Virus record (IMG/VR): IMGVR_UViG_3300021420_000021
Span: 30,267 to 94,266 of that record
From: a virus
DNA: 64,000 nt
Reading direction: 5' to 3' (one strand)
Shown here one piece after another: positions 41,524-64,000 of the stretch (positions are counted from its first letter, which is position 1; every line of letters begins with the position of its first letter). The translations under genes and the position numbers were made by a program. Below the pieces are notes generated by a model. It was not told where the DNA came from. It saw only the letters and a list, made by a program, of their open reading frames with translations, and did not search any database.

Positions 41524-42064
41524 TACGTACCTTTCTTACAATTTGAATAGTCTTCAATGCGGGCGATAGTTGCATAAATTCCTCATACGTAAAATTATTA
41601 CTTTTCATACGATTGCATTCGCCACAGCAAACAGTGCAATTCAGAGCAGAATACCCAAGGTTGCTATCTTTTCGATCTAAATTTGATCCTACTCCTGCCA
41701 CATTTATTGAGTACTCTGACCATGATACCTCATCTCCGCAATAATGACAAGCTTTTATTTTTGTAAATTCAATAAATTCTTCATATGTCAGTTCAAATGA
41801 AAGACCCCGGCGCTCACTCTTATACGCAATATTGTTGTATAATGACTCATAAGGACGCTTTCTGCCGAGTTTCATACATCCACAACTTAAACTACTACCA
41901 CTCAATAAGCATGTAGCAAATACGTCTTTTACCAAGCTACAAACACAGCGACATGTATACTTATACATACCCCATCTTTTATCTTTGTGTTCCGGCACTC
42001 CTATAATAGTCCAGTAGCCAAAAACTTCTCCTACTCTTTTATGCCTTGATATCGGCCTTCCCAT
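41507..42064 (-). CDS. HNH-like endonuclease
   Basis: CRCVC...SCGC; CHYCG...LDRKDSNLGY...N...CC.ECNRMK. Confidence 0.8.
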   Translation of the reverse strand: MGRPISRHKRVGEVFGYWTIIGVPEHKDKRWGMYKYTCRCVCSLVKDVFATCLLSGSSLSCGCMKLGRKRPYESLYNNIAYKSERRGLSFELTYEEFIEFTKIKACHYCGDEVSWSEYSINVAGVGSNLDRKDSNLGYSALNCTVCCGECNRMKSNNFTYEEFMQLSPALKTIQIVRKVRNEETR

Positions 42065-43055
42065 AAAGTTCCTTATAATAATTATGCATCTTTTCAGTTA
42101 GTTTGTCAAGAGGAATATCTTCACGGCGATATTTTTCTTTTTCGCCTTTTATCGTTAACCATGCATTTCCCTCAACAAGTCCAATATGCAAGCAATGGTT
42201 GATAGTGTCGTCATGGATATTAAAACCTGTATCATAGAACAACGAAACCTCTGTCTCATGAAACGGCGCTCCGGCTTTGTTTTTCTGTGCTTTAATACTC
42301 ATTTTATGGCCGATTGCGTCTCCGTCTTTTGCATCGCCTTCTTTGATAACTCCACCTTTTGACATCGCCAATCGCCGGACTTCCAATCGTGTCGTCGCGG
42401 CGAATCTCAGCGCTCGTCCGCCCGAAGTCACTTCTGGATTACCGAATACAAGGCCGATCTTTTCTCGTATCTGATTGATAAATATGACAGTTGTGCCAGA
42501 TGTGGACACTGGTCCGACAAGTTTACGCATTGCCTGACTCATCATCCGCGCCTGCAAACCCATGTGCGAATCGCCCATATCACCTTCGAGTTCGGCCCGA
42601 GGGACTAACGCGCTGACAGAGTCTACAACTATAAGATCAACCGCTTTACTTTCAACAAGCGCGAGAACGATTTCTAGCGCCTGTTCTCCGAAGTCCGGCT
42701 GAGAAATTATAAGATCGTTCATGTTTACGCCGAGTTTAGATGCAAACGTCGGACTATACGCGTGTTCCGCGTCAACGAATGCGGCAATTCCGCCCGATTT
42801 CTGGCATTGGCCGATAATATGCGAACACAAAGCCGTTTTCCCCGAAGACTCCGGCCCGTATACTTCTATAATCCGGCCTTTCGGAACACCGCCGCAGCCG
42901 AAAACTTCGCGATCTAACGATGGCAGATTAGTCGATATTACCGGAATTTGCTGATTGACTTTCATCCCGTACTTCTGAAATGTTGTCGATCCCAATTCCT
43001 TATCCAGCTTCTTGCTGACTTCCTCTATCATCGCCCACTTCTCGGTTTGATTCAT
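42039..43055 (-). CDS. recA: RecA recombinase
   Basis: GRIIEVYGPESSGKT, DAEHA, VVDSVSALVPRAELEGDMGD, QARMMSQAMRKL, FINQIREKIG, GGRALRF. Confidence 0.95.
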   Translation of the reverse strand: MNQTEKWAMIEEVSKKLDKELGSTTFQKYGMKVNQQIPVISTNLPSLDREVFGCGGVPKGRIIEVYGPESSGKTALCSHIIGQCQKSGGIAAFVDAEHAYSPTFASKLGVNMNDLIISQPDFGEQALEIVLALVESKAVDLIVVDSVSALVPRAELEGDMGDSHMGLQARMMSQAMRKLVGPVSTSGTTVIFINQIREKIGLVFGNPEVTSGGRALRFAATTRLEVRRLAMSKGGVIKEGDAKDGDAIGHKMSIKAQKNKAGAPFHETEVSLFYDTGFNIHDDTINHCLHIGLVEGNAWLTIKGEKEKYRREDIPLDKLTEKMHNYYKELYGKADIKA

Positions 43056-45201: not shown

Positions 45202-45449
45202 TTTGTGCCCGATTTCTCAGTTAACGACCATTTACTTATTTCAACATCTCCATATGATCCGAGTTCAGCCTTGTATCCAAGGGTTTTTAAATGTTTAATT
45301 GTTTTAAGAGCTAAAGCATCTGCTTTAGAAATTCGAACTTCTATCGCTTTATTCTCGGCTTGTTGTCTCGCATATGCTTCGGGCGGACATGGTTCGCCAA
45401 AATGAAAACTACTTAGCCCACAGTCAACACAGTATTCATGATTTCCCAT
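45198..45449 (-). CDS. hypothetical protein
   Basis: TAATG coupling to the helicase stop; CVDCG. Confidence 0.5.
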   Translation of the reverse strand: MGNHEYCVDCGLSSFHFGEPCPPEAYARQQAENKAIEVRISKADALALKTIKHLKTLGYKAELGSYGDVEISKWSLTEKSGTK

Positions 45450-47110
45450 TATTTTGCCCTCTTTGATATTTTCTGATCGATAAAATGCGCCGCTTGTCCG
45501 CGTGTCAATGTCGCGGGCCAAGGTTTGCCGCCGTATAATTTCTTCAACAATCCTAATTGTGCCGAAGTTGCTTCTTTTGTGTTCCAACTAGACTTACGAT
45601 CTACAAGATGTACAGAACCTTCGGCCCGAGTACGAATTGCGTTATCCGCCGCCGCAAAAGCCTCCTCCATTGTCGGCCTTTGCCCGATCACATCGATTCC
45701 CCGGATTTGACCTTTAATTTCCCAGCCATCAAGCATATTCTGTTGGATATGTACAAATCCCGCCGCTTCGCCGTTTCTGCCTTTGGGAATCGACATCCGA
45801 TACCCTCCAGTCGCACTTTTACACCATTTGAAATCACTCGCCGCTTCGACTTCTGCGGGAAAACGAATTTCGAACAGATTAATATTCTCAACGAATGACT
45901 TCAAATCTGTTACTTTTTGCAGCTTCATGAAATCGATATTCGGATTTTCTTCTTGCGCTTTTTCGATTTCTTTAACTGATTTAAACAAACTTTGGCCGCA
46001 TAAGTCTAATTTATCAGGCAATCCCATCAACGTCGGAACGGTGCATAAAGTATGATCACCGGACATATCACAAACATCAAGAACGATCAAGTCTTTCTTA
46101 CCTTCGAATAATCGCGTTCCGCGCCCGCAACCTTGATTAAATCGAACCGGACTTTTAGTCGGAACAGCCCACACAACACAACTTATGTTCGGAATGTCAA
46201 CGCCTTCAGAGAGAATTTGAACATTGCACATTATAGTCGTGTCTGTCGCTTCAAACGCAGCTAGTTTTTCTGCCCGAAGTGGGTCTTCGCCATGAACGTA
46301 TTCTGCTTTAACTCCTGCTAGTTTAAACTCTTCAGACAACGCAGCAGCATGGGCAACACTGCCGCAGAATACAATCGTCTGTCTGTTCTCGCCTACTTTA
46401 TTCCATGCTTCAACGATATTTGCATTTCTTTCAGGGTTATTGATCGTCTCGGCTAGTTCTACAGGTTTAAAATCCCCGCCCGCAGTTCCGACGTTTTCAA
46501 TGCTCGTCTTCGTGTCAATTCGATAACCGCGAATATCAACAAGCCAGCCTTCGTCAATCGCAGTTCTTAATCCATAAACATAACTAATCTTTTTATATAG
46601 TGTAGAAAGCGCTTTACCGTCAGTGCGTTGGGGCGTTGCTGTAAAGCCAATTAACAGTTTTTTAGAATCGGGCGTTAAAACACCCGCCATCTCCAGAATA
46701 TTAATGTAACTTTGTGCAGTAGAATGATGACATTCGTCCACACACACTTTATCGATTGAAGACCAGTCAATTTTTTCATTTCGTTTACTTCCTTTCCGCC
46801 CCAAAGTCGCGACACTTGCAACGATTATATCTGAATCTTGATCCGCGACATCTCCGGCCATTTCTTTTGAGACTTTAAGATTCGGATTCGCCGCTCGAAG
46901 CTTTGTAATAGCTTGGTCAATTAGTTCTGTTCTGTGGGCTAAAACAAGTGTCTTTCCGGGCAAAATGTCTTTTAAATGTTCTGGAAGATTAGAAAATATT
47001 TGAGTCTTACCAGTTCCGGTTGCAGCAGAGACAACAAGACTGCTATATCCGTCTTCGTAATCAGACCGGATCGCGTCAAGTGCTCGTTTTTGATATTCGC
47101 GCAATGGCAT
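45449..47110 (-). CDS. superfamily II DExH helicase
   Basis: LREYQ, ATGTGKT, DECH, TAT, QGCGRGTR. Confidence 0.9.
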   Translation of the reverse strand: MPLREYQKRALDAIRSDYEDGYSSLVVSAATGTGKTQIFSNLPEHLKDILPGKTLVLAHRTELIDQAITKLRAANPNLKVSKEMAGDVADQDSDIIVASVATLGRKGSKRNEKIDWSSIDKVCVDECHHSTAQSYINILEMAGVLTPDSKKLLIGFTATPQRTDGKALSTLYKKISYVYGLRTAIDEGWLVDIRGYRIDTKTSIENVGTAGGDFKPVELAETINNPERNANIVEAWNKVGENRQTIVFCGSVAHAAALSEEFKLAGVKAEYVHGEDPLRAEKLAAFEATDTTIMCNVQILSEGVDIPNISCVVWAVPTKSPVRFNQGCGRGTRLFEGKKDLIVLDVCDMSGDHTLCTVPTLMGLPDKLDLCGQSLFKSVKEIEKAQEENPNIDFMKLQKVTDLKSFVENINLFEIRFPAEVEAASDFKWCKSATGGYRMSIPKGRNGEAAGFVHIQQNMLDGWEIKGQIRGIDVIGQRPTMEEAFAAADNAIRTRAEGSVHLVDRKSSWNTKEATSAQLGLLKKLYGGKPWPATLTRGQAAHFIDQKISKRAK

Positions 47111-47352
47111 TACGGTTTCCAACCTCGCAATCGTGTGAATTTAACTTCGCCGTCGATCAACTCAATCTTCAAAAATCCGTCGTGATGCGCGTTGTGACAC
47201 GTTCGGCAAATCGTTATAATATTATGCAATTCGTCTTTACCGCCCTGTGATACATGTACAATATGATGCGGATCGAGCGCGAATGTGCAGCTACAATGTA
47301 CACAATGCCAATCGTCCCGGTCGAAACACAGTTTGCGTAAATTCTTATCCAT
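47110..47352 (-). CDS. HNH endonuclease
   Basis: RDDWHCVHC...HHI....GG....N....C..CH...H. Confidence 0.85.
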   Translation of the reverse strand: MDKNLRKLCFDRDDWHCVHCSCTFALDPHHIVHVSQGGKDELHNIITICRTCHNAHHDGFLKIELIDGEVKFTRLRGWKP

Positions 47353-47614: not shown

Positions 47615-48604
47615 TTACGCCTCGACCGCATAGAATTTAAACGCTTCATCTTTATAGTCTATAACAATGTCTTCAACCGTGTCAAGCTGTTTCGTAGAAA
47701 TTGCCCGCGCACAAGGCAACATAATTTCTTTTTCGATTGTACGCCGTAAACTTCGAGCGTTATATCGTTTGTCGTAGCCTCTTTTCAAGAGTTCGGCCAA
47801 AGCCGCAGGAGTCGGAATCAACTTAGAAAAATTAGACGAAAAGAGAATACTTTGGGCTTTTCTAATTTCTAACCCGAGAATTTCTTTCATGTCTTGGATT
47901 GTCAAAGTTTTGAAACACACGATTTCGTCTAAACGATTAAGAAATTCAGGCGTAAATTTTCGTCTTGCCGCCGACATCGCCGCGTCTTCAACTTGTTGAT
48001 TATCCCGTTCGTCGTCTTCTTTGCCAAATCCGAGAACGCCGTGATCGGAATTAATCGCGCCGACATTCGATGTCATAATAATTATACAGTCTTTAAACAA
48101 AGTTGTCGAGTTATCACCTAAAGTGACAGTTCCTTTATCGAGAATACTAAGTAAAAGATGCCAAAGCGCGTCACTTGCTTTCTCGATTTCGTCAAAGAGA
48201 ATGATCGAAACGGGCATGTCTTGGGTCTGGACTGCGTTTAACGCTTTCTGTGTCAATCGTGCGGGCGTTTCTTTATGCCCGAGATATCCCGGAGGAGAGC
48301 CGATCAACTTAGCGATTTCGTGTGAATGCTGAAATTCACCGCAGTCGATTCGGACCATATTTTTATTCGACCCGAACAGCCCTTCGCACAAAGCCTCGAC
48401 TGTAGATGTTTTGCCTGTCCCGGTCGGCCCGAGAAACAAGAGACTTCCAATCGGGCGATCTTTATCGCACAATCCGCCAAGAAACTTCTCAAGAACATTC
48501 GTCAAAGCAAGAGTCGCAGGTTCTTGACCGATGATCCGATTAGCAAATTTCTCTTGTAACGCGATTGCTTTAAGACTGTGCTTCGACGTGTCGATAGCTC
48601 GCAT
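47615..48604 (-). CDS. stand-alone ClpA/ClpB D2-type AAA+ ATPase
   Basis: GPTGTGKT, LIGSPPGYLG pore loop, LFDEIEKA, PEFLNRLD, ARSLRRTIE. Confidence 0.85.
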   Translation of the reverse strand: MRAIDTSKHSLKAIALQEKFANRIIGQEPATLALTNVLEKFLGGLCDKDRPIGSLLFLGPTGTGKTSTVEALCEGLFGSNKNMVRIDCGEFQHSHEIAKLIGSPPGYLGHKETPARLTQKALNAVQTQDMPVSIILFDEIEKASDALWHLLLSILDKGTVTLGDNSTTLFKDCIIIMTSNVGAINSDHGVLGFGKEDDERDNQQVEDAAMSAARRKFTPEFLNRLDEIVCFKTLTIQDMKEILGLEIRKAQSILFSSNFSKLIPTPAALAELLKRGYDKRYNARSLRRTIEKEIMLPCARAISTKQLDTVEDIVIDYKDEAFKFYAVEA

Positions 48605-49972: not shown

Positions 49973-51124
49973 CTATACGTGTGAATCAACTAACGGTTTT
50001 ACACCCGATACTTTACTTTTAAGCATTTTCCAGATAATCGGACGAACATTTTTTCCATCTAACATTGCAAAAAGAACACCCGAAATCGGCTTGTTCTGTT
50101 CATTCGTAAAAAGTTCTGCCCATTGCTTGCGTGTCGGCAATTCATTTCCGTAAGGCGGCGCGTTTAACACTGCTCGGGCGCAAATAAACATTGTTTCTGC
50201 CGCGTCATTAATTTGCTTGTATTCGTTCTCCAAATATCGCCGCCACTTGCTAAGAAAATGACTAAACCAAGGGTTTGTTTCGTTCGTCCATTGATCTAAA
50301 ACGCTCGTCCAGCTATTCTCTAGCGCTTCGAGAATGCGTTTCGGGCTAGTTTGTGTCACAATACGATGGATTTTCAAGTATTCGAGTAGTTTCACCTTGA
50401 GACGAAATGGCGTCTGCCCCTGTCTACACCACACGAGCACAAAGCCTTCAAAGTTCTGCTTATTCGTATTCGCTTCTTTTAATGCTTTCTCCATCGTGAA
50501 ACTGTACTTTTCAGGAATGGACAAACTGTTCAAAGACGCATACTGACACAAATCATCGTAATCAACTTCTTCGCCCGTTTCGTTATCGATCAATGCGAGC
50601 AATGTCAACCCTTCTCGTTTTCCATAGTCAACAACGATCCGCAGATTCGGCGTCAATCCTTCAAACACAGGAGTAAATCCCGGACGCCAGCGCCAATTCG
50701 GGCGATGTTTCTGATACCATTTCGTCGCCCACTTTGCATGAACTGAATTGAACGAACTCTTACTCGCGATATAATCTTTCCCATTGTAATTGTACAAGAT
50801 ACAAAGAAATCCGTCCATTTTTTCGTAAATCTCAGGCTCGCCCGGAGGAAGTAAATTTACAGTATCAGAAAGAATCGCTTGTCCGTAATTAAAGAATTTC
50901 TCAAATGGTCGAGCAACAATTTCAAATGTTTCTGTATTGTAAATCAGCCCGCGACATTTTGTTGTTACAGAATCCCAAACATTATCATAAACCGCCTTTC
51001 GGCCATAACACATAATCGCGAGCGGAAATTCGTCATGAAAGTTCCGGTCGATCAAACACGAATCGATATATTCATCAAGTTTGTCGGCGTCGATTCCCAA
51101 GTACGTGAATAAATTCATAATCAC
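49973..51124 (-). CDS. T4 Rnl1-like RNA ligase
   Basis: CRGLI...ARPFEKFFN, EKMDG (adenylated Lys), FE, EGFV, KVK..EY. Confidence 0.85.
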   Translation of the reverse strand: MIMNLFTYLGIDADKLDEYIDSCLIDRNFHDEFPLAIMCYGRKAVYDNVWDSVTTKCRGLIYNTETFEIVARPFEKFFNYGQAILSDTVNLLPPGEPEIYEKMDGFLCILYNYNGKDYIASKSSFNSVHAKWATKWYQKHRPNWRWRPGFTPVFEGLTPNLRIVVDYGKREGLTLLALIDNETGEEVDYDDLCQYASLNSLSIPEKYSFTMEKALKEANTNKQNFEGFVLVWCRQGQTPFRLKVKLLEYLKIHRIVTQTSPKRILEALENSWTSVLDQWTNETNPWFSHFLSKWRRYLENEYKQINDAAETMFICARAVLNAPPYGNELPTRKQWAELFTNEQNKPISGVLFAMLDGKNVRPIIWKMLKSKVSGVKPLVDSHV

Positions 51125-51612: not shown

Positions 51613-51641
51613 AATATACTATGTATTCGGATGATTGTCAA
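51613..51641 (-). promoter_or_regulatory. sigma70-like promoter
   Basis: TTGACA-17 bp-TATATT. Confidence 0.7.
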
Positions 51642-52686
51642 CAAATTTCTTTTCACAGGCCGCGCACATCGTTTCTGCGCCGTTACAGCCTTTCTTTCGG
51701 CGCGAGCCTTTGTACTTTGTATAATCGAGACATTGCAATTGTCGTTCCGCCGCAAGTACTTCTTTCGCCCGATCACGTTTCTGAGTCTTGATATCGTCAA
51801 TTCGGTCTTCGATCTTATGAACTGATCTATAAAGTGCCAACGCGTTCAGAAATCCTTGAAAGTCTTGGTCAAATAAATCTTGACCTGTCACATGCCACGG
51901 ATCGAATTCCGCATCATCTTTCCCGAGTCTTATGATCCATCGGTCGTCAATCGTTTTGCCCGATTCTTCCTGAATTGCCTGTTGGTAGGCCGAAGTTTGG
52001 AGCAAATATTCGATATAAAGATAATTACTCGTTTTCCAATCAACGAGCGTATATCGGCCTTTAAACGTCGCCGGGCAACATTCTTTATCGGTACATGAGT
52101 CAACAAATGCGAGTCCATCTGCTGTTCCGGCGTAGTTATATTTCCGGGAGAAGCATTTACGCTCTGTCGAAATCCATCTGACATTATGTTTATGCATCCA
52201 TTCAAGGGCGGCGGTAACGGCGTTTGCGGCTCGTTCATCAGATGGAAATTTGGAGAGTAATTCAAGTCGTCTGTCCTCTTTCTCTTCGATTATACTTTGT
52301 ATATAATTCTCAATCCATTCGTGGGCCGCGTGCCCGGTTTCGCCTGCTGCTTCGAGTTCTTCTTTGTCAGCTTTCTTTGCTTGGGCGATCAGTTCATCTA
52401 ATGTCGTTGAAAGATCAAGTTCACTTAATTCCCAAAGGGGTAAGCCGATAATTAGCTTTTTTAATTTCTCAAGTGCTTTCTTTACGGCCCATCGCATCAA
52501 AACTTCCGACTTGTCGATAATATGACAAACTGTCGTTACTCCGTCTTGACGTTCTCTTGATCCGTCTGGAAGAACGCGATAATAACTCCATTTTGACTGA
52601 TCGAATAGTAAAGTTTCTGTTCCGCCGTAAAAAGAATAACTCGGCAAATCGCCAAAGCCGTCTGCGTAAAGAATCAGCGGCTTCAA
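51619..52686 (-). CDS. PD-(D/E)xK exonuclease-like protein
   Basis: GVTTV, G...HEWIE, YAGTADG, VDWKTS, Q.SAY. Confidence 0.8.
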   Translation of the reverse strand: MKPLILYADGFGDLPSYSFYGGTETLLFDQSKWSYYRVLPDGSRERQDGVTTVCHIIDKSEVLMRWAVKKALEKLKKLIIGLPLWELSELDLSTTLDELIAQAKKADKEELEAAGETGHAAHEWIENYIQSIIEEKEDRRLELLSKFPSDERAANAVTAALEWMHKHNVRWISTERKCFSRKYNYAGTADGLAFVDSCTDKECCPATFKGRYTLVDWKTSNYLYIEYLLQTSAYQQAIQEESGKTIDDRWIIRLGKDDAEFDPWHVTGQDLFDQDFQGFLNALALYRSVHKIEDRIDDIKTQKRDRAKEVLAAERQLQCLDYTKYKGSRRKKGCNGAETMCAACEKKFVDNHPNT

Positions 52687-57636: not shown

Positions 57637-57897
57637 TCATACTATTAACTCTTCTTGACTCGCGCATATGCCTAAAATCATTTGCTTACACGATTCAGGA
57701 TCAGGATCAACAATCGAATATGTCCATTGCTTGTTTCCGTCCGGGCCATTCCAATATTCCATTAAACTGCGCGTATTCGTCTTTGGCACAATCGGCTGCG
57801 CATACGCAGTTAGCGACATTATTACATCTGGAAATGTGCCTTTACTCACTGCCCGGATCATAACTTTATCTGTATCTGTCCCGTCATCCAAAATCAT
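57637..57897 (-). CDS. hypothetical protein
   Basis: SD GAGGA, coupled. Confidence 0.5.
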   Translation of the reverse strand: MILDDGTDTDKVMIRAVSKGTFPDVIMSLTAYAQPIVPKTNTRSLMEYWNGPDGNKQWTYSIVDPDPESCKQMILGICASQEELIV

Positions 57898-58280
57898 ATG
57901 GCCGATTCCTCTTGTTTGCCCGAATGATTGAAATATCTCACACGAGTTACTCCCGCGAGTCGCGCCAGTTCAAGACAATTTGCACAAGGCTTTGAACATC
58001 CGAGACTGCCGTCTGCTCGTCTACGCGCAACATAAAGAGTCAATCTTGCGCCTACGTCATAATAGTTGCGCCTAATCAAAGCTACGTGTTCCGCGTGAAT
58101 CGTCCGAACGAATGCCCGATTGTCTGAATCAGGATGAGTCGAATTCCAGCGATTTGCGCCGACTGACAAAAGTCGATTGCCCGAAAATAACGCAGCGCCC
58201 ATCCGTAATCCCGGACGCGGCGCGTTACTTAACAAAGCGGTCGCCAATGCGACATCGAAACCTCGGGCGATAGAATTCAT
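57894..58280 (-). CDS. cytidine/dCMP deaminase-family protein
   Basis: HAE...SKPCANC Zn motif. Confidence 0.8.
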   Translation of the reverse strand: MNSIARGFDVALATALLSNAPRPGLRMGAALFSGNRLLSVGANRWNSTHPDSDNRAFVRTIHAEHVALIRRNYYDVGARLTLYVARRRADGSLGCSKPCANCLELARLAGVTRVRYFNHSGKQEESAI

Positions 58281-58626: not shown

Positions 58627-59532
58627 TTAGCTTACCTCCGTTTCTGGCGCGGCTCTGAATTTCCTTCCACGTACCTCGACTAACGCGCCGATACTCTGTG
58701 TAACTTCTTTGAATTGCGATTGCAAATCGAGTCTCAAAGTCTCAGAATTCTTGATCTTTTCAACGTCAATACCGGACATAATCGCTTTCAATTTGTCCAT
58801 TTCGATCTGCAATTCCTTCGAGTCAGTGACATTTCTGAGATCAAACGTATTCAGAAATTCTTGCAACTTCGTGACGTGTACGGCGTACAATTTCTTCGAC
58901 TTTCCATCCGCGTCAGGAGTCAATCGGTCAAGAAGAGTTTGTACAAGTTCATGTGCCGTTGTCGCAAGCGCTTGCCCGATTCCAGCAGCCGCTTCCATCA
59001 GCATCTCATGCGCTTTTTCTTTCTCCGCCGCGAATACGCCCGGAGCAACTGACTTGAGATGACCGGGAACTGAGAAAGAAATGAATTGATAAGTGAAAGT
59101 GAACTGCGCTCGGACTTCTTCTTTTGTGGGAAATTCTTTTGCGATGAAATGCTCTTTCAATTCGATTTCCGCTTGATCAATCTGATCGTCATAAACTCCG
59201 ATAAACGCGTCAACGAGTGCCGGACGAGTTTGAGTGTAATTATGAAGAATCGCATCGATCTGCTCAATCGCCGCAATCGGCGCAAAACGAATTCCGACAT
59301 CATAAGGCAGACAAATCGCGTCAATCTGTGCCTTAATCTCGTTATCTGCTTTTGCAATCGCCTTTAATTCGGGCGAAACGAGCAATTTCTTTTGGTGAGT
59401 AAACCGCGATTCGACCGCCTCAGATTGGATTCCGATATCGACTTTGCGCGTAACTCCGAATCGGCCAAAGTTGAGACGTAGAAAAACCGTTTTGTCAATC
59501 AGTGAATCTAGATTAGTCGTTTCGATTGTCAT
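58627..59532 (-). CDS. DUF3150-like helical protein
   Basis: KKLL...L..I, ..FP..EEVR..F, F..RNV...EL, LR pattern; SD AGGAG. Confidence 0.6.
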   Translation of the reverse strand: MTIETTNLDSLIDKTVFLRLNFGRFGVTRKVDIGIQSEAVESRFTHQKKLLVSPELKAIAKADNEIKAQIDAICLPYDVGIRFAPIAAIEQIDAILHNYTQTRPALVDAFIGVYDDQIDQAEIELKEHFIAKEFPTKEEVRAQFTFTYQFISFSVPGHLKSVAPGVFAAEKEKAHEMLMEAAAGIGQALATTAHELVQTLLDRLTPDADGKSKKLYAVHVTKLQEFLNTFDLRNVTDSKELQIEMDKLKAIMSGIDVEKIKNSETLRLDLQSQFKEVTQSIGALVEVRGRKFRAAPETEVS

Positions 59533-59626: not shown

Positions 59627-59655
59627 ATTCTCTAGCAAATAAATTGCGCTGTCAA
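59627..59655 (-). promoter_or_regulatory. sigma70-like promoter
   Basis: TTGACA-17 bp-GAGAAT. Confidence 0.5.
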
Positions 59656-59678: not shown

Positions 59679-60077
59679 TTACTCTCCTATAAACCACGAA
59701 TTCAAAAATTTTATTTCTGCGTCGATTGCGTCTTTCCTGTTGCGCCATGTTTTAACGCACTCGCCCGTATTATCCCACAACGGACGTACGACGTTAGGAT
59801 AAACATGCTTGTATCGTAGAATCGGCCCGCCTACAGGTTTTGTATTGACTCTCCAGAAAATCGGCCAATTTCTCGTAAACTCTGACATTCGGCCTTTGTC
59901 GCCTAAAACTTGTCGCAGGCCGTGAAAGATTATACGAAGTACAAAGTTATTCGGTTCGACGTGACTCGCCCGCGAAACATTCGCACCTTCGAGTAATGGA
60001 CTTTCGTGCATGAATTCTAGGACGAGAAATTTCATATCGCCCGATTCATCGATTACGAATGTAAGTTCTTGGGGCAT
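59679..60077 (-). CDS. conserved hypothetical RASHVEP-motif protein
   Basis: TAATG-coupled start MPQELTFVIDESG; SRASHVEP, W......VGGP.L, R.DA..AE. Confidence 0.65.
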   Translation of the reverse strand: MPQELTFVIDESGDMKFLVLEFMHESPLLEGANVSRASHVEPNNFVLRIIFHGLRQVLGDKGRMSEFTRNWPIFWRVNTKPVGGPILRYKHVYPNVVRPLWDNTGECVKTWRNRKDAIDAEIKFLNSWFIGE

Positions 60078-60268
60078 TAGTTTTTCTGCTGCAATTTTGT
60101 CTGTGTCAAACACGGCCTGTTGAATTCCGGTTTGTGCGTCACATGGTCCGACTTTCCGACCGCACGCGCAAAACCTTCCTGAATTGCGGCACAACCTTTA
60201 CCTTGATATCCAGCAAGATCAACAGAAACTTCGCCGGATTCATCAATTTCCACAGTTATGATTTTCAT
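60077..60268 (-). CDS. DUF2997-like protein
   Basis: ITVEIDESGEV.....GYQGKGC...KPEF. Confidence 0.7.
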   Translation of the reverse strand: MKIITVEIDESGEVSVDLAGYQGKGCAAIQEGFARAVGKSDHVTHKPEFNRPCLTQTKLQQKN

Positions 60269-60278
60269 ATATTCCTTT

Positions 60279-60680
60279 CTACGCTTGCAAATATTTGATA
60301 ACAGTCTTTCCGTTTACGACTTGGCGCGACATCAATTTTGCGCCGATTCGCTTTGCTTCTTTCGCAGTCGTTCGATTTGCGTAGTTCTTCTTTAGATCAG
60401 TTAACCATTTTGTATTGTGTTTGCCCGAGTCGAACTGAGAAATGATGGCCGAATATCTGCCATCAGGAGTCTTGACAAAGCCGATGTCATTCGCGGCAGC
60501 GCCTACAAACTTGCGCCGAACTATGACATTCGCTTTCTCGGGCCGAGTATCGCCGTGATATCCCACTAAGTTTTGCGCTTCGTCATGAACTTCGACATTA
60601 TTATAACCCATATCGCCCAAAGCAGCAACAAGGCATTCACGATCTTTGTACTGCGTTTCGAGACTTGCGTAAGCTGACAT
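60279..60680 (-). CDS. DUF1257 (Ycf35-like) protein
   Basis: MS.Y....T...D...L..AL..MG...L.GY.G...A.V.......NDIGF....DGRY. Confidence 0.75.
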   Translation of the reverse strand: MSAYASLETQYKDRECLVAALGDMGYNNVEVHDEAQNLVGYHGDTRPEKANVIVRRKFVGAAANDIGFVKTPDGRYSAIISQFDSGKHNTKWLTDLKKNYANRTTAKEAKRIGAKLMSRQVVNGKTVIKYLQA

Positions 60681-60781: not shown

Positions 60782-60809
60782 ATTATACACGTACAAAATC
60801 TTGTGTCAA
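60782..60809 (-). promoter_or_regulatory. sigma70 consensus promoter
   Basis: TTGACA-16 bp-TATAAT. Confidence 0.75.
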
Positions 60810-60936: not shown

Positions 60937-62493
60937 TCATCGCATTTTCCTTCCCGTAGTCGTAACAGTCGGGACGTGTGTAATCTCAGTCTTAGGCGCG
61001 GTATAAGTATAAAGGCCCGGATGTGACGCGCTAAGAAAGCGATTGTGGGCCGATTGCTGTAATTCCGCCATTGCTTCCGAATGTGACTTCATCAAAGGCA
61101 CGACATAGCGCGAAGCTTCCATGAGTGTCGAACCCATCATATCGGCTTTGTCACACATCGAATCGATTTCGCGCCCGGTAAACATATCCATTTCTGGAAT
61201 CTCTGTCGTTTGCTCGGACGTGAGTTTATATTTCGCAATTTTCAGTCTCAGAATCTCGGCTCGTTCATCGGCATTCGGAGGAGCGAAAAAGAAAATTCCA
61301 CCTTTCTCGAATCGTGAGATTAACTCTGCGGGCAGACCGCGCAAACTATTCGCAGTCGCGCATAACAAGATTTGACCATCAGATATCGCTTCGACTACCG
61401 CTTCAGCGTTTCGTAAATTCTTGCCCGAATTGCCGACTAAAGAATCTTGCATTCCCGCGATATCGAAATTTATGACCGGAACCTCGAATTCTCCTCCGAG
61501 ACAGTAAATGATATGCGACTTCGATGCTCCGGGAACGCCAAGAAACAACGTACAGACAACTTTCTTGTCTTCGACCCACGAAAGAAAGTTCCCGAGTAAA
61601 TCGCCCTTGACTCCACTTGTATCAGTTCCCGCCCCCGCAAAGGCTTTCTCGATTTCATCAACGCGGAGAATTACTTTCGCACCACGTTTTCCTTTCATGA
61701 TCTGCGTCAGATACGTTTTGATGTTCGTTAATCCGCCTGCGTCTTTCAGTGTTTCCGGGCCTGTGTAAAAGCTAAGACCGGGACACGCGGAAACGATATC
61801 GCGCTTTCTCTGCCACATTCCAGCGATATCTAATTTGCTCGTTTTTAGATCGATGTGCATTGCCGTTGCTTGGTCCGAAGGGAATGCCGCGATTCCGACA
61901 AGTGCGTCAGCACTTTTCTCTAATATTTCTTCAGTCGGAGTTTTTGCGCCCGCGAATCCGAAACAGTCTTTTACGATCTGTTTAAGTTCGGCCCGAGTTG
62001 GCAATGGTTCTTCTAATGCGAGAACATCGTTATTCAATTCAGGTGGAAGAACAGTTCCGAGAACAGACAATAACACAAGCATATTTCCATTTGCTTTGTA
62101 CGAGTCTCGGACATTCCAAATGCCTTGTAGAACGAGTGGATCAGCCCAAAACAAATGTATATTGTGTACAAAACAGATGACATCTTCTGATGCGTATTCA
62201 AGGGCCGATAACGCAATCGGCAATTGCGCAGTCGCGCCCGCATCGACCTGAATCTTGCTAATCATGCTTGCGACTTCGGCAGAACCTTTGTCATTCTTGC
62301 CAATCAAACCGTGAATCGCATCCCAAGATACAAGCGGAGTTTTGTTAATCAATTCTTCGCCCGCAGTTTTCGTAAGTCCGGTAATCAAAGCTTTGCGGAC
62401 GTTTGTAATTGTCGAAGCGGCATCAGATGTTCTGACGCTGATAATCGGCGTACTGACGGCGCGTGCGGCGATAAATTGCTTTAGAAAATTCAC
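60937..62493 (-). CDS. Ycf46-like AAA+ ATPase with permuted motif order
   Basis: Degenerate N-terminal AAA, then GGLTNIK, Walker B VILRVDEIEK before Walker A GVPGASKS, SLVG, sensor ATAN, LPAELISRF. Confidence 0.8.
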   Translation of the reverse strand: MNFLKQFIAARAVSTPIISVRTSDAASTITNVRKALITGLTKTAGEELINKTPLVSWDAIHGLIGKNDKGSAEVASMISKIQVDAGATAQLPIALSALEYASEDVICFVHNIHLFWADPLVLQGIWNVRDSYKANGNMLVLLSVLGTVLPPELNNDVLALEEPLPTRAELKQIVKDCFGFAGAKTPTEEILEKSADALVGIAAFPSDQATAMHIDLKTSKLDIAGMWQRKRDIVSACPGLSFYTGPETLKDAGGLTNIKTYLTQIMKGKRGAKVILRVDEIEKAFAGAGTDTSGVKGDLLGNFLSWVEDKKVVCTLFLGVPGASKSHIIYCLGGEFEVPVINFDIAGMQDSLVGNSGKNLRNAEAVVEAISDGQILLCATANSLRGLPAELISRFEKGGIFFFAPPNADERAEILRLKIAKYKLTSEQTTEIPEMDMFTGREIDSMCDKADMMGSTLMEASRYVVPLMKSHSEAMAELQQSAHNRFLSASHPGLYTYTAPKTEITHVPTVTTTGRKMR

Positions 62494-62939
62494 TTTATTC
62501 TCCTTGGTTCGCCCGTTTCCGGATCAACGTGCCTAAAGAACACGACACGATAGCCCGTCGCATCTGATCCCCTGTGATGATTGCCCATATCTCCGTGCCG
62601 CGCTGTCCATCCATCAACCTCAAACGGCGCGAGAGCTTTGGCGATTCTTTCTTCTGATCCTTCGCCATAAGTATTGTCATTTGTGAAAGGAACGAATTCC
62701 TCTTTGTTCTCTGCTTTCATGCCAATAGGCGCGTCTGAAAACCACTCCATTTGTGCAGCACCTTGGGAACTTGTAAGCGCCTTTGTAAACTCATCAAGCG
62801 CCATCCAAACTTCACAGACGCGACAGCCGCTAATCTTGTCTGTAATAGTAATGTGCATCGGAATCGCGTTTCGACTACCTTGACTTCTGCACATCTGCAC
62901 TGTAGCGGCCAGCGTCTTTGATCCATTCGTTATTTTCAC
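62490..62939 (-). CDS. hypothetical protein
   Basis: SD GGAG, coupled to the AAA gene. Confidence 0.6.
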   Translation of the reverse strand: MKITNGSKTLAATVQMCRSQGSRNAIPMHITITDKISGCRVCEVWMALDEFTKALTSSQGAAQMEWFSDAPIGMKAENKEEFVPFTNDNTYGEGSEERIAKALAPFEVDGWTARHGDMGNHHRGSDATGYRVVFFRHVDPETGEPRRIK

Positions 62940-63462: not shown

Positions 63463-64000
63463 TTAGTAATTTTCCGCTTCCGTTCGCGTGATAAAGAAAT
63501 GAATTCCGCCACCGCATTCGATCCATCGATCTTCATTCCATTTATCACATTTTACGATCTTGCCGACGCGATACTCCGTTTTATTATCGTATTGACTAAT
63601 GCCAACTTCTGCGCCGATGACTTCGAGAACTTTGACGTATTCGGCACGACATTTTCGTCCTGTGGCGTTACTTCGCTTTGCGTTCTTGCCGACTAAAACT
63701 TTCACGATTACGTCGTTATTACATTTCTTCCAGCCTGTGATCTGCCCGACTTCAGGCACAATAGACGATTGTGCAGCCAATAGCGGCGAGATGTTTTTCG
63801 CACCAGAAAGGTCCGCACTACGAAGGTTCGCACCATAAAGGTCCGCACTACGAAGGTCCGCACCATAAAGGTCCGCACCAGAAAGGTCCGCACTACGAAG
63901 GTTCGCACCAGAAAGGTCCGCACTACGAAGGTTCGCACCAGAAAGGTCCGCACTACGAAGGTTCGCACCAGAAAGGTCCGCACTACGAAGGTTCGCACCA
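63463..64000 (-). CDS. pentapeptide-repeat protein with DUF5758-like C-terminal domain (5' truncated by the window edge)
   Basis: Open frame [10 protein letters not shown] repeats, then GWKK...[14 protein letters not shown]...[14 protein letters not shown]. Confidence 0.85.
63799..64000. repeat. 15/30-bp coding tandem repeat
   Basis: CGCACCAGAAAGGTCCGCACTACGAAGGTT x~6.7, encoding A(D/N)Lxx pentapeptides. Confidence 0.9.

Follow-up and report, generated by a model that had tools for sequence, protein, structure and literature searches.

A phage family of Ycf46-type AAA ATPases in which the Walker B block lies ahead of the Walker A block

To our knowledge, the succession of Walker A and then Walker B is treated as fixed in AAA+ and related P-loop ATPases, and annotation models rely on this order. 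A natural and conserved reordering of P-loop NTPase motifs is found in the circularly permuted GTPases (YlqF/RbgA, YqeH and RsgA), which run G4-G5-G1-G2-G3 and keep their fold and active site. At the gamma-phosphate of an ATP site in an AAA+ ring, the Arg finger of one subunit comes together with sensor 2 of the adjoining subunit, and the classical AAA clade is marked by the lack of a sensor-2 arginine and by an Ala in its GAD/GAE motif. Normal-order Ycf46 proteins are common in cellular genomes, where at least 598 relatives were confirmed (598 of 600 among the pattern matches listed). Their loci (L024-L103) come from many bacterial phyla, some archaeal MAGs and cyanobacteria, and the AAA gene is usually followed immediately downstream, and in the same orientation, by DUF1257 and then DUF2997; the three genes make up a module that is widespread and uncharacterised. 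Cyanobacteria and plastids carry Ycf46 together with Ycf35, the DUF1257 protein.

The window analysed here, a stretch of 64,000 nucleotides, belongs to the 94,266-bp virus record of a soil phage, which was judged 99% complete. It contains one uninterrupted frame of 518 codons (60937-62493, minus strand; Table 1), whose GTG start codon at 62493-62491 overlaps the stop of an upstream ORF (62490-62939) with neither a family match nor conserved relatives. The product is very probably a functional Ycf46-type AAA ATPase that has an N-domain without a P-loop and in which block B has been moved ahead of block A, its activity and fold being inferred. The translation confirms that the core blocks run B-A-C, against the normal A-B-C. 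Block B carries the Walker B residues D279/E280 and the pore-loop-2 region (D291-S293-G294), block A the Walker A residues G319-S326 and pore loop 1 (V353, G354), and block C the sensor-1 residue N382 and the second region of homology (SRH) with R394, S393 occupying the first Arg-finger position. Only one Walker A per protein was found by motif scan, and residues 1-235 hold neither Walker A nor Walker B.

Table 1. Features of the permuted AAA gene and its surroundings, in positions of the window
Feature	Residues	Position	Strand	Basis or remark
P0001, two-domain Ycf46-like AAA ATPase with permuted core		60937-62493	-	translation, Pfam, profile comparison
Shine-Dalgarno AAGGAG		62500-62505	-	6 nt upstream of GTG start
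N-terminal AAA-like domain without P-loop	1-235	61789-62493	-	models, structural alignment, BLASTP
Strand 0 and helix 0 of active domain, including GGL motif	236-268	61690-61788	-	AlphaFold, hhalign
GGL motif GGLTNIK	254-260
Block B, relocated: strand 3/Walker B, pore loop 2, helix 3	269-311	61561-61689	-
Walker B VILRVDEIEK	274-283	61645-61674	-
FLSWVED	303-309
Block A: strand 1, Walker A, helix 1, strand 2, pore loop 1, helix 2	312-373	61375-61560	-
Walker A GVPGASKS	319-326	61516-61539	-
Block C: strand 4, sensor 1, SRH, strand 5, first lid helix	374-430	61204-61374	-
Sensor 1 ATAN	379-382
LPAELISRF	387-395
S393	393	61315-61317
Lid domain and Ycf46-type C-terminal tail	431-518	60940-61203	-	hhalign, conservation, covariation
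R441, in lid domain	441	61171-61173		sensor-2 position
Perfect sigma-70 consensus (TTGACA, 16 nt, TATAAT; 12/12)		60782-60809	-	between AAA stop and DUF1257 start
DUF1257 (Ycf35-like) partner		60279-60680	-	directly downstream of AAA gene
DUF2997 partner		60077-60268	-	downstream
Small phage-only partner X, no family match		59679-60077	-	likely ATG 60077 overlaps DUF2997 stop
Sigma-70 match (10/12)		59627-59655		ahead of DUF3150 gene
DUF3150-like phage-only partner		58627-59532	-
dCMP-deaminase-like protein		57894-58280	-
Exonuclease		51619-52686	-
RNA ligase		49973-51124	-
Second AAA-like protein		47615-48604	-	phrog_4871, weaker clamp-loader match
DNA helicase		45449-47122	-
UvsX-like recombinase		42039-43055	-
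Pentapeptide-repeat protein fused to DUF5758 domain		63463-63999	-	ORF open at 5' end

The reversed order is shared by a large set of relatives. A word-indexed search returned 327 proteins, the best 120 of which were full-length at 49-99% identity, and an exhaustive search of 50%-identity cluster representatives gave 4,228 matches at E<=0.001 and 906 at E<=1e-30, with a nearly full-length match in almost all of the best 150. Walker B comes first in alignments of 16, 118 and 262 members, and as its column precedes the Walker A column in 262/262 rows of the largest, the finding is far beyond chance. Motif scanning placed Walker B first in 207 proteins and Walker A first in none, while 62 remained unscored with search patterns that were too strict. 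The residues E280, G322, K325, N382 and R394 are present in 262/262 rows, as is S or T at position 326, and D279 in 257/262, the remainder having E. Members are also encoded by 17 further viral contigs, most of them 75-99 kb long, and by the isolate Tunturiibacter phage Tunturi_3, in whose complete genome gp103 is a permuted relative with 41% identity.

Since the window was taken from a metagenome-derived virus record, a chimeric or misjoined contig, or a faulty gene call, could be thought to have created the order. However, the 262 aligned relatives come from many samples, the arrangement recurs in the 17 other viral contigs and in Tunturi_3, and an independent soil metagenome run yielded contigs, at a depth of about 170-195x, that cover the gene with zero differences and bridge the block junctions at nt 61689, 61560 and 61374. 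Misassembly is ruled out on these grounds, and an artefact of either kind retains next to no probability; the reversed order is real, old and common to hundreds of phage relatives. The original prediction had read Walker B ahead of Walker A at the positions given above, as two intact blocks swapped within one open frame, and had proposed a search for same-order homologues to exclude misassembly. The motif order and coordinates held, the exchange of intact blocks was borne out by the homologues, the junction-bridging contigs and the profile mapping described below, and the same order was recovered in all aligned relatives.

Conventional annotation sees little of this protein. Pfam AAA (PF00004) matches with 34.2 bits against a gathering cut-off of 21.2, and only residues 316-363 are placed, on profile positions 2-49 of 131; a match limited to 48 residues is expected from broken collinearity. 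When the pieces were submitted separately, block B, the N-domain and the tail each remained without a Pfam match. The single-sequence search of the PDB gave no match, NCBIfam gave weak sub-threshold matches only (IteA and DnaA), and in PHROGs the protein falls in phrog_8638, of unknown function.

Profile comparison (hhalign) against 120 collected normal-order relatives places each block. Block B maps to normal-order residues 324-365 (E 5e-16; probability 98.6%), block A to 266-325 (E 8e-22) and block C to 369-422 (E 1e-18). The hhalign score rises from 449.8 in native order to 546.9 when B and A are restored to the normal order, and from 301 to 394 for the C-domain alone; after de-permutation, collinearity extends from the GGL motif through the family-specific C-terminal tail. 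Profile-profile comparison with cellular Ycf46 covers both domains (probability 100%, E 3e-58). From the block mapping and the collinear restored alignment it follows that the protein is a Ycf46-type AAA ATPase in which the segment A-B has been turned into B-A.

Pairwise searches show the same displacement. When the permuted-family profile was run against 185,579 species genomes, no permuted member was found, and the lone match was a normal-order Ycf46-like protein of 522 aa in a Spirochaetales MAG. BLASTP aligns both domains of the two proteins collinearly (E 1e-13) save for a 41-residue gap, which coincides with the Walker B strand and helix 3 of the normal protein, and the phage Walker B block stands opposite a non-homologous linker ahead of the normal Walker A. 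Similarly, the phage-family profile matched AFG2 among PDB sequences in two segments, 310-367 to AFG2 664-721 and 370-448 to AFG2 766-848, with about 45 chain residues left unmatched between them.

It could be argued that an insertion of unrelated origin, or a regulatory element, accounts for the upstream DEIEK block, that the true strand 3 has been lost, and that the protein is a pseudo-ATPase or uses other acidic residues. The Pfam match confined to residues 316-363, with none for block B on its own, is compatible with such a loss. Against it, block B alone maps to the Walker B-helix 3 region of normal Ycf46 in the comparison above (36% identity over 39 columns), D279 is nearly invariant and E280 fully so, couplings tie its strand to strand 4 and to the end of helix 2, and translation and motif scan reveal no other hhhhDE motif downstream of Walker A. 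A lost Walker B is therefore very improbable indeed, and the relocation of a genuine Walker B unit remains the preferred reading.

Placed among AAA families by homology, the protein is clearly a Ycf46-type AAA ATPase and yet breaks the collinearity of that family. The two-domain Ycf46 build is present, with the same N-domain elements in both predicted models and with BLASTP and hhalign matches that span both domains; the Ycf46-type tail (VPL...LR...SAS/PAS) is aligned by hhalign, and DUF1257 and DUF2997 lie in the neighbourhood. Walker A (GxxGxGK[ST]), Walker B (hhhhDE), the sensor-1 Asn and the SRH Arg finger are all found. In contrast, collinearity with classical AAA (Walker A, pore loop 1, Walker B, sensor 1) fails, as does a collinear fit to the Ycf46-like (COG0464 group) profile, onto which the blocks map as B, A, C. 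The protein is not a type II AAA with two nucleotide-binding domains, the N-domain being without Walker motifs. The swapped AAA core of the original prediction thus stands, and the AAA type can be given in more detail: the parent is of the two-domain Ycf46 type, and an internal segment rather than the whole domain has been permuted.

Structure prediction with 118 relatives as input gave an AlphaFold model with a pLDDT of 90.8. In the active domain, the predicted elements are, in chain order, strand 240-243, helix 256-267, strand 274-278 (Walker B), short helix 281-284, helix 295-309, strand 313-319, helix 325-336, strand 340-343, helix 355-371, strand 375-381, helix 389-395 and strand 400-403. 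P0281, a normal-order protein, was modelled as a control (pLDDT 82.8); it shows these same elements, nearly identical in length, in the usual order, and the linkers at the new junctions, of 6, 3 and 3 residues, equal those of the control. The N-domain matches domain 1 of normal Ycf46 in element order and aligns to D1 of Cdc48/p97. As a whole, the model aligns to Cdc48/p97 D1D2 over 403 residues (Z 18), and the C-domain to Vps4 and p97 D2 over about 200-216 residues (Z 15-16, rmsd about 3 A). With the order-dependent structural aligner, the permuted form matched fewer residues than the control at similar rmsd: 213 vs 269 for Vps4 (6bmf_B), 204 vs 266 for p97 D2 (3cf0_A) and 202 vs 250 for p97 D2 (6g2v). 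In these models the shortfall of 48-62 residues would correspond roughly to block B and its flanks.

Covariation was assessed by mean-field direct-coupling analysis of 262 rows, with a modest effective number of about 176-186. Couplings between the Walker B strand and strand 4 (L276-L377, I281-A379 and D279-T380) were among the top pairs, V274-S371 linked the beginning of the Walker B strand to the end of helix 2, two segments that follow directly on each other in normal proteins, and F317-F403 linked strand 1 with strand 5. Many further couplings connect helix 3/pore loop 2 with pore loop 1/helix 2, and strand pairs that are not neighbours in a 5-1-4-3-2 sheet mostly score low. The expected strand 3-strand 2 coupling is weak, with a maximum of 1.07, and some strand 3-strand 5 scores exceed 1 without explanation. 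The usual fold and sheet order are likely kept, as judged from secondary structure, alignment lengths and this modest covariation, without coordinate distances; AlphaFold and covariation use the same kind of signal and so are not fully independent. A suggestion of the original prediction, that a rewired topology may still assemble a normal active site, is supported by the model, the covariation and the invariant catalytic residues, in the absence of an ATPase assay or a solved structure.

Strong couplings were also seen between the tail and the core: N257-L487, which involves helix 0 beside the GGL motif, and A404-Q479 and E410-S488, which involve strand 5/helix 5. This covariation of the tail with helix 0 and strand 5/helix 5 suggests that the Ycf46-type C-terminal tail packs back on the ATPase core.

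Covariation is blind to whether a contact lies within or between chains, and a relocated strand and helix held by a short linker might conceivably be exchanged between subunits, so that block B of one subunit would insert in the core of its neighbour and form a composite site of a new kind. Such a three-dimensional domain swap is nevertheless highly improbable: AlphaFold gives a confident monomer (pLDDT about 93 over residues 261-280), the monomer fits solved AAA domains at an rmsd of about 3 A, and linkers matching the control are long enough for one-strand shifts within one chain.

The preferred reading, then, is a rearrangement within a single chain. A unit of about 43 residues (strand 3/Walker B, pore loop 2 and helix 3) has shifted in front of the Walker A unit, so that helix 0 is followed along the chain by B, A and C and no longer by A, B and C. 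The three-dimensional fold, by inference, has most likely been kept, the sheet order being 5-1-4-3-2. Helix 3 would feed strand 1 rather than the neighbouring strand 4, and helix 2 would feed strand 4 rather than the neighbouring strand 3. From the known topology of the fold, each rewired link may be taken as a shift by one strand with handedness kept, and for this reason Walker A, Walker B, sensor 1 and the Arg finger would meet as they do in any AAA protein. The enzyme should act as a ring with ATP sites between subunits, both ring and activity being inferred.

In formal terms, B-A is the internal segment A-B after circular permutation. By inference, the simplest route starts with a tandem duplication, A-B-A-B, from which the outer copies (the leading A and the trailing B) would then have been lost. 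The five relatives listed as longest or as matching in two stretches (P0108, P0194, P0216, P0243 and P0267) include no A-B-A-B intermediate. The length of P0194, a family member of 896 aa from the search of cluster representatives, is due to an intein with a LAGLIDADG-type endonuclease inside the sensor-1 motif (IAT|C...HN|CN); inteins usually sit in essential conserved sites. A tree was built from 65 permuted rows, de-permuted for alignment, together with 34 cellular and 4 phage rows of normal order. All permuted proteins fall on one side of a branch with an SH-aLRT of 100, a result that is consistent with a single origin, and the permutation is read as having arisen once, in a phage lineage. 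The donor lineage is unsettled, as the nearest normal-order neighbour sits on a long branch.

A second departure from normal Ycf46 concerns the arginines around the ATP site. S393 aligns with the first R of the RKGR motif of normal Ycf46, so that the first SRH arginine is missing here, as it is in about half of the family. R441 aligns by hhalign with the Ala of the normal Ycf46 SGAE motif, at what we take to be the sensor-2 position, where classical AAA proteins typically have no arginine. Across the family, position 441 is R in 149/262 rows and A in 98/262. R393 occurs without R441 in 113/262 rows and R441 without R393 in 149/262, whereas no row has both and none has neither. This strict either/or of Arg393 and Arg441 is new here.

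The two states have alternated about 24 times on the family tree and differ between pairs as close as 66% identity. In 12/12 independent pairs on supported branches, the two positions change in opposite directions (sign test p 0.0005), and 393-441 is the top coupling among 33,670 pairs. Because Arg finger and sensor 2 share a gamma-phosphate, this pattern fits an oligomer with inter-subunit ATP sites, and by inference it fits one arginine that can be supplied from either side of such a site. The fuller proposal is an internal AAA permutation that keeps the fold, in a family whose second catalytic arginine has moved repeatedly between a trans Arg-finger position (393) and a cis sensor-2 position (441); we lean towards it only slightly. 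If both arginines do serve the same gamma-phosphate, the family replays the main active-site difference between classical AAA and the other AAA+ clades and would offer a ready-made natural experiment on the wiring of the AAA+ site. The either/or also amounts to a testable statement on how the work at an ATP site is divided between arginines of one subunit and those of its neighbour.

The AAA gene belongs to a five-gene set with DUF1257, DUF2997, X and DUF3150, which recurs at almost every related phage locus in one of two arrangements. Permuted proteins are almost confined to phages of about 90-100 kb, and X and DUF3150 accompany solely the permuted form, as compared with 80 cellular loci and phages RcTiptonus, L338C and SM1. 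No functional PHROG was assigned to the partner genes, and for DUF3150 and X the ESM Atlas held unnamed viral clusters only. The partner genes may have promoters of their own, given the sigma-70 matches before DUF1257 and DUF3150 (Table 1). No RNA data set was listed as carrying the AAA gene. With a recombinase, DNA helicase, second AAA-like protein, RNA ligase, exonuclease and deaminase-like protein encoded nearby in the early region, the AAA module sits in the DNA-metabolism arm of the phage. The protein would presumably remodel or unfold a protein with its DUF1257 and DUF2997 partners in early infection, the substrate being unknown.

In full-text literature searches, neither an AAA or P-loop ATPase whose Walker B precedes its Walker A nor a phage module of AAA, DUF1257, DUF2997, X and DUF3150 was found to have been described. 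A large and ancient phage family with the two units exchanged indicates that the AAA fold tolerates an internal permutation, and provides a natural test case for the role of folding order and connectivity in a very well-studied motor. For annotation, it means that profile-based methods under-call permuted proteins, as illustrated by the 48 residues recognised by Pfam. Furthermore, the permuted AAA is the motor of a conserved and uncharacterised phage module, the core trio of which extends to cyanobacteria and plastids as Ycf46 and Ycf35.

The closest comparison is with the normal-order Ycf46-like proteins of Rhodobacter phage RcTiptonus (gp60), Rhizobium phage L338C (gp050) and Pseudomonas phage SM1 (gp026). 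They share the two-domain build, close motifs including DE[IV]DK...FL.W, the Ycf46-type tail and carrier phages of about 93-110 kb, and have DUF1257 and DUF2997 a few genes downstream on the same strand, with one or two unnamed genes between these and the AAA gene (L104, L105 and L107). Unlike the protein described here, they have Walker A/Walker B at 311/366, 303/358 and 314/369, respectively, they lack X and DUF3150, and they fall outside the permuted clade. Cellular Ycf46 (COG0464 'SpoVK/Ycf46/Vps4') likewise has both domains and the VPL...LR...SAS tail; DUF1257 adjoins its gene in 31/80 loci, on the same strand and mostly just downstream, and DUF2997 in 25/80. It differs in its collinear A-B-C order, in the RKGR motif with two SRH arginines and in an Ala at the sensor-2 position.

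More distantly, the type II classical AAA proteins Cdc48/p97, AFG2/Drg1 and NVL, together with Vps4/p97-D2, are the best structural matches to the model. The N-domain here differs from those of the Cdc48/p97 group in having no P-loop, identity is 12-17%, and about 50-60 fewer residues align in order than for the normal-order control. Lastly, the circularly permuted GTPases offer a precedent in another class of P-loop NTPase, in which the whole domain is permuted, whereas in the phage proteins only an internal segment of the AAA core has been reordered and the ends of the domain are unmoved.
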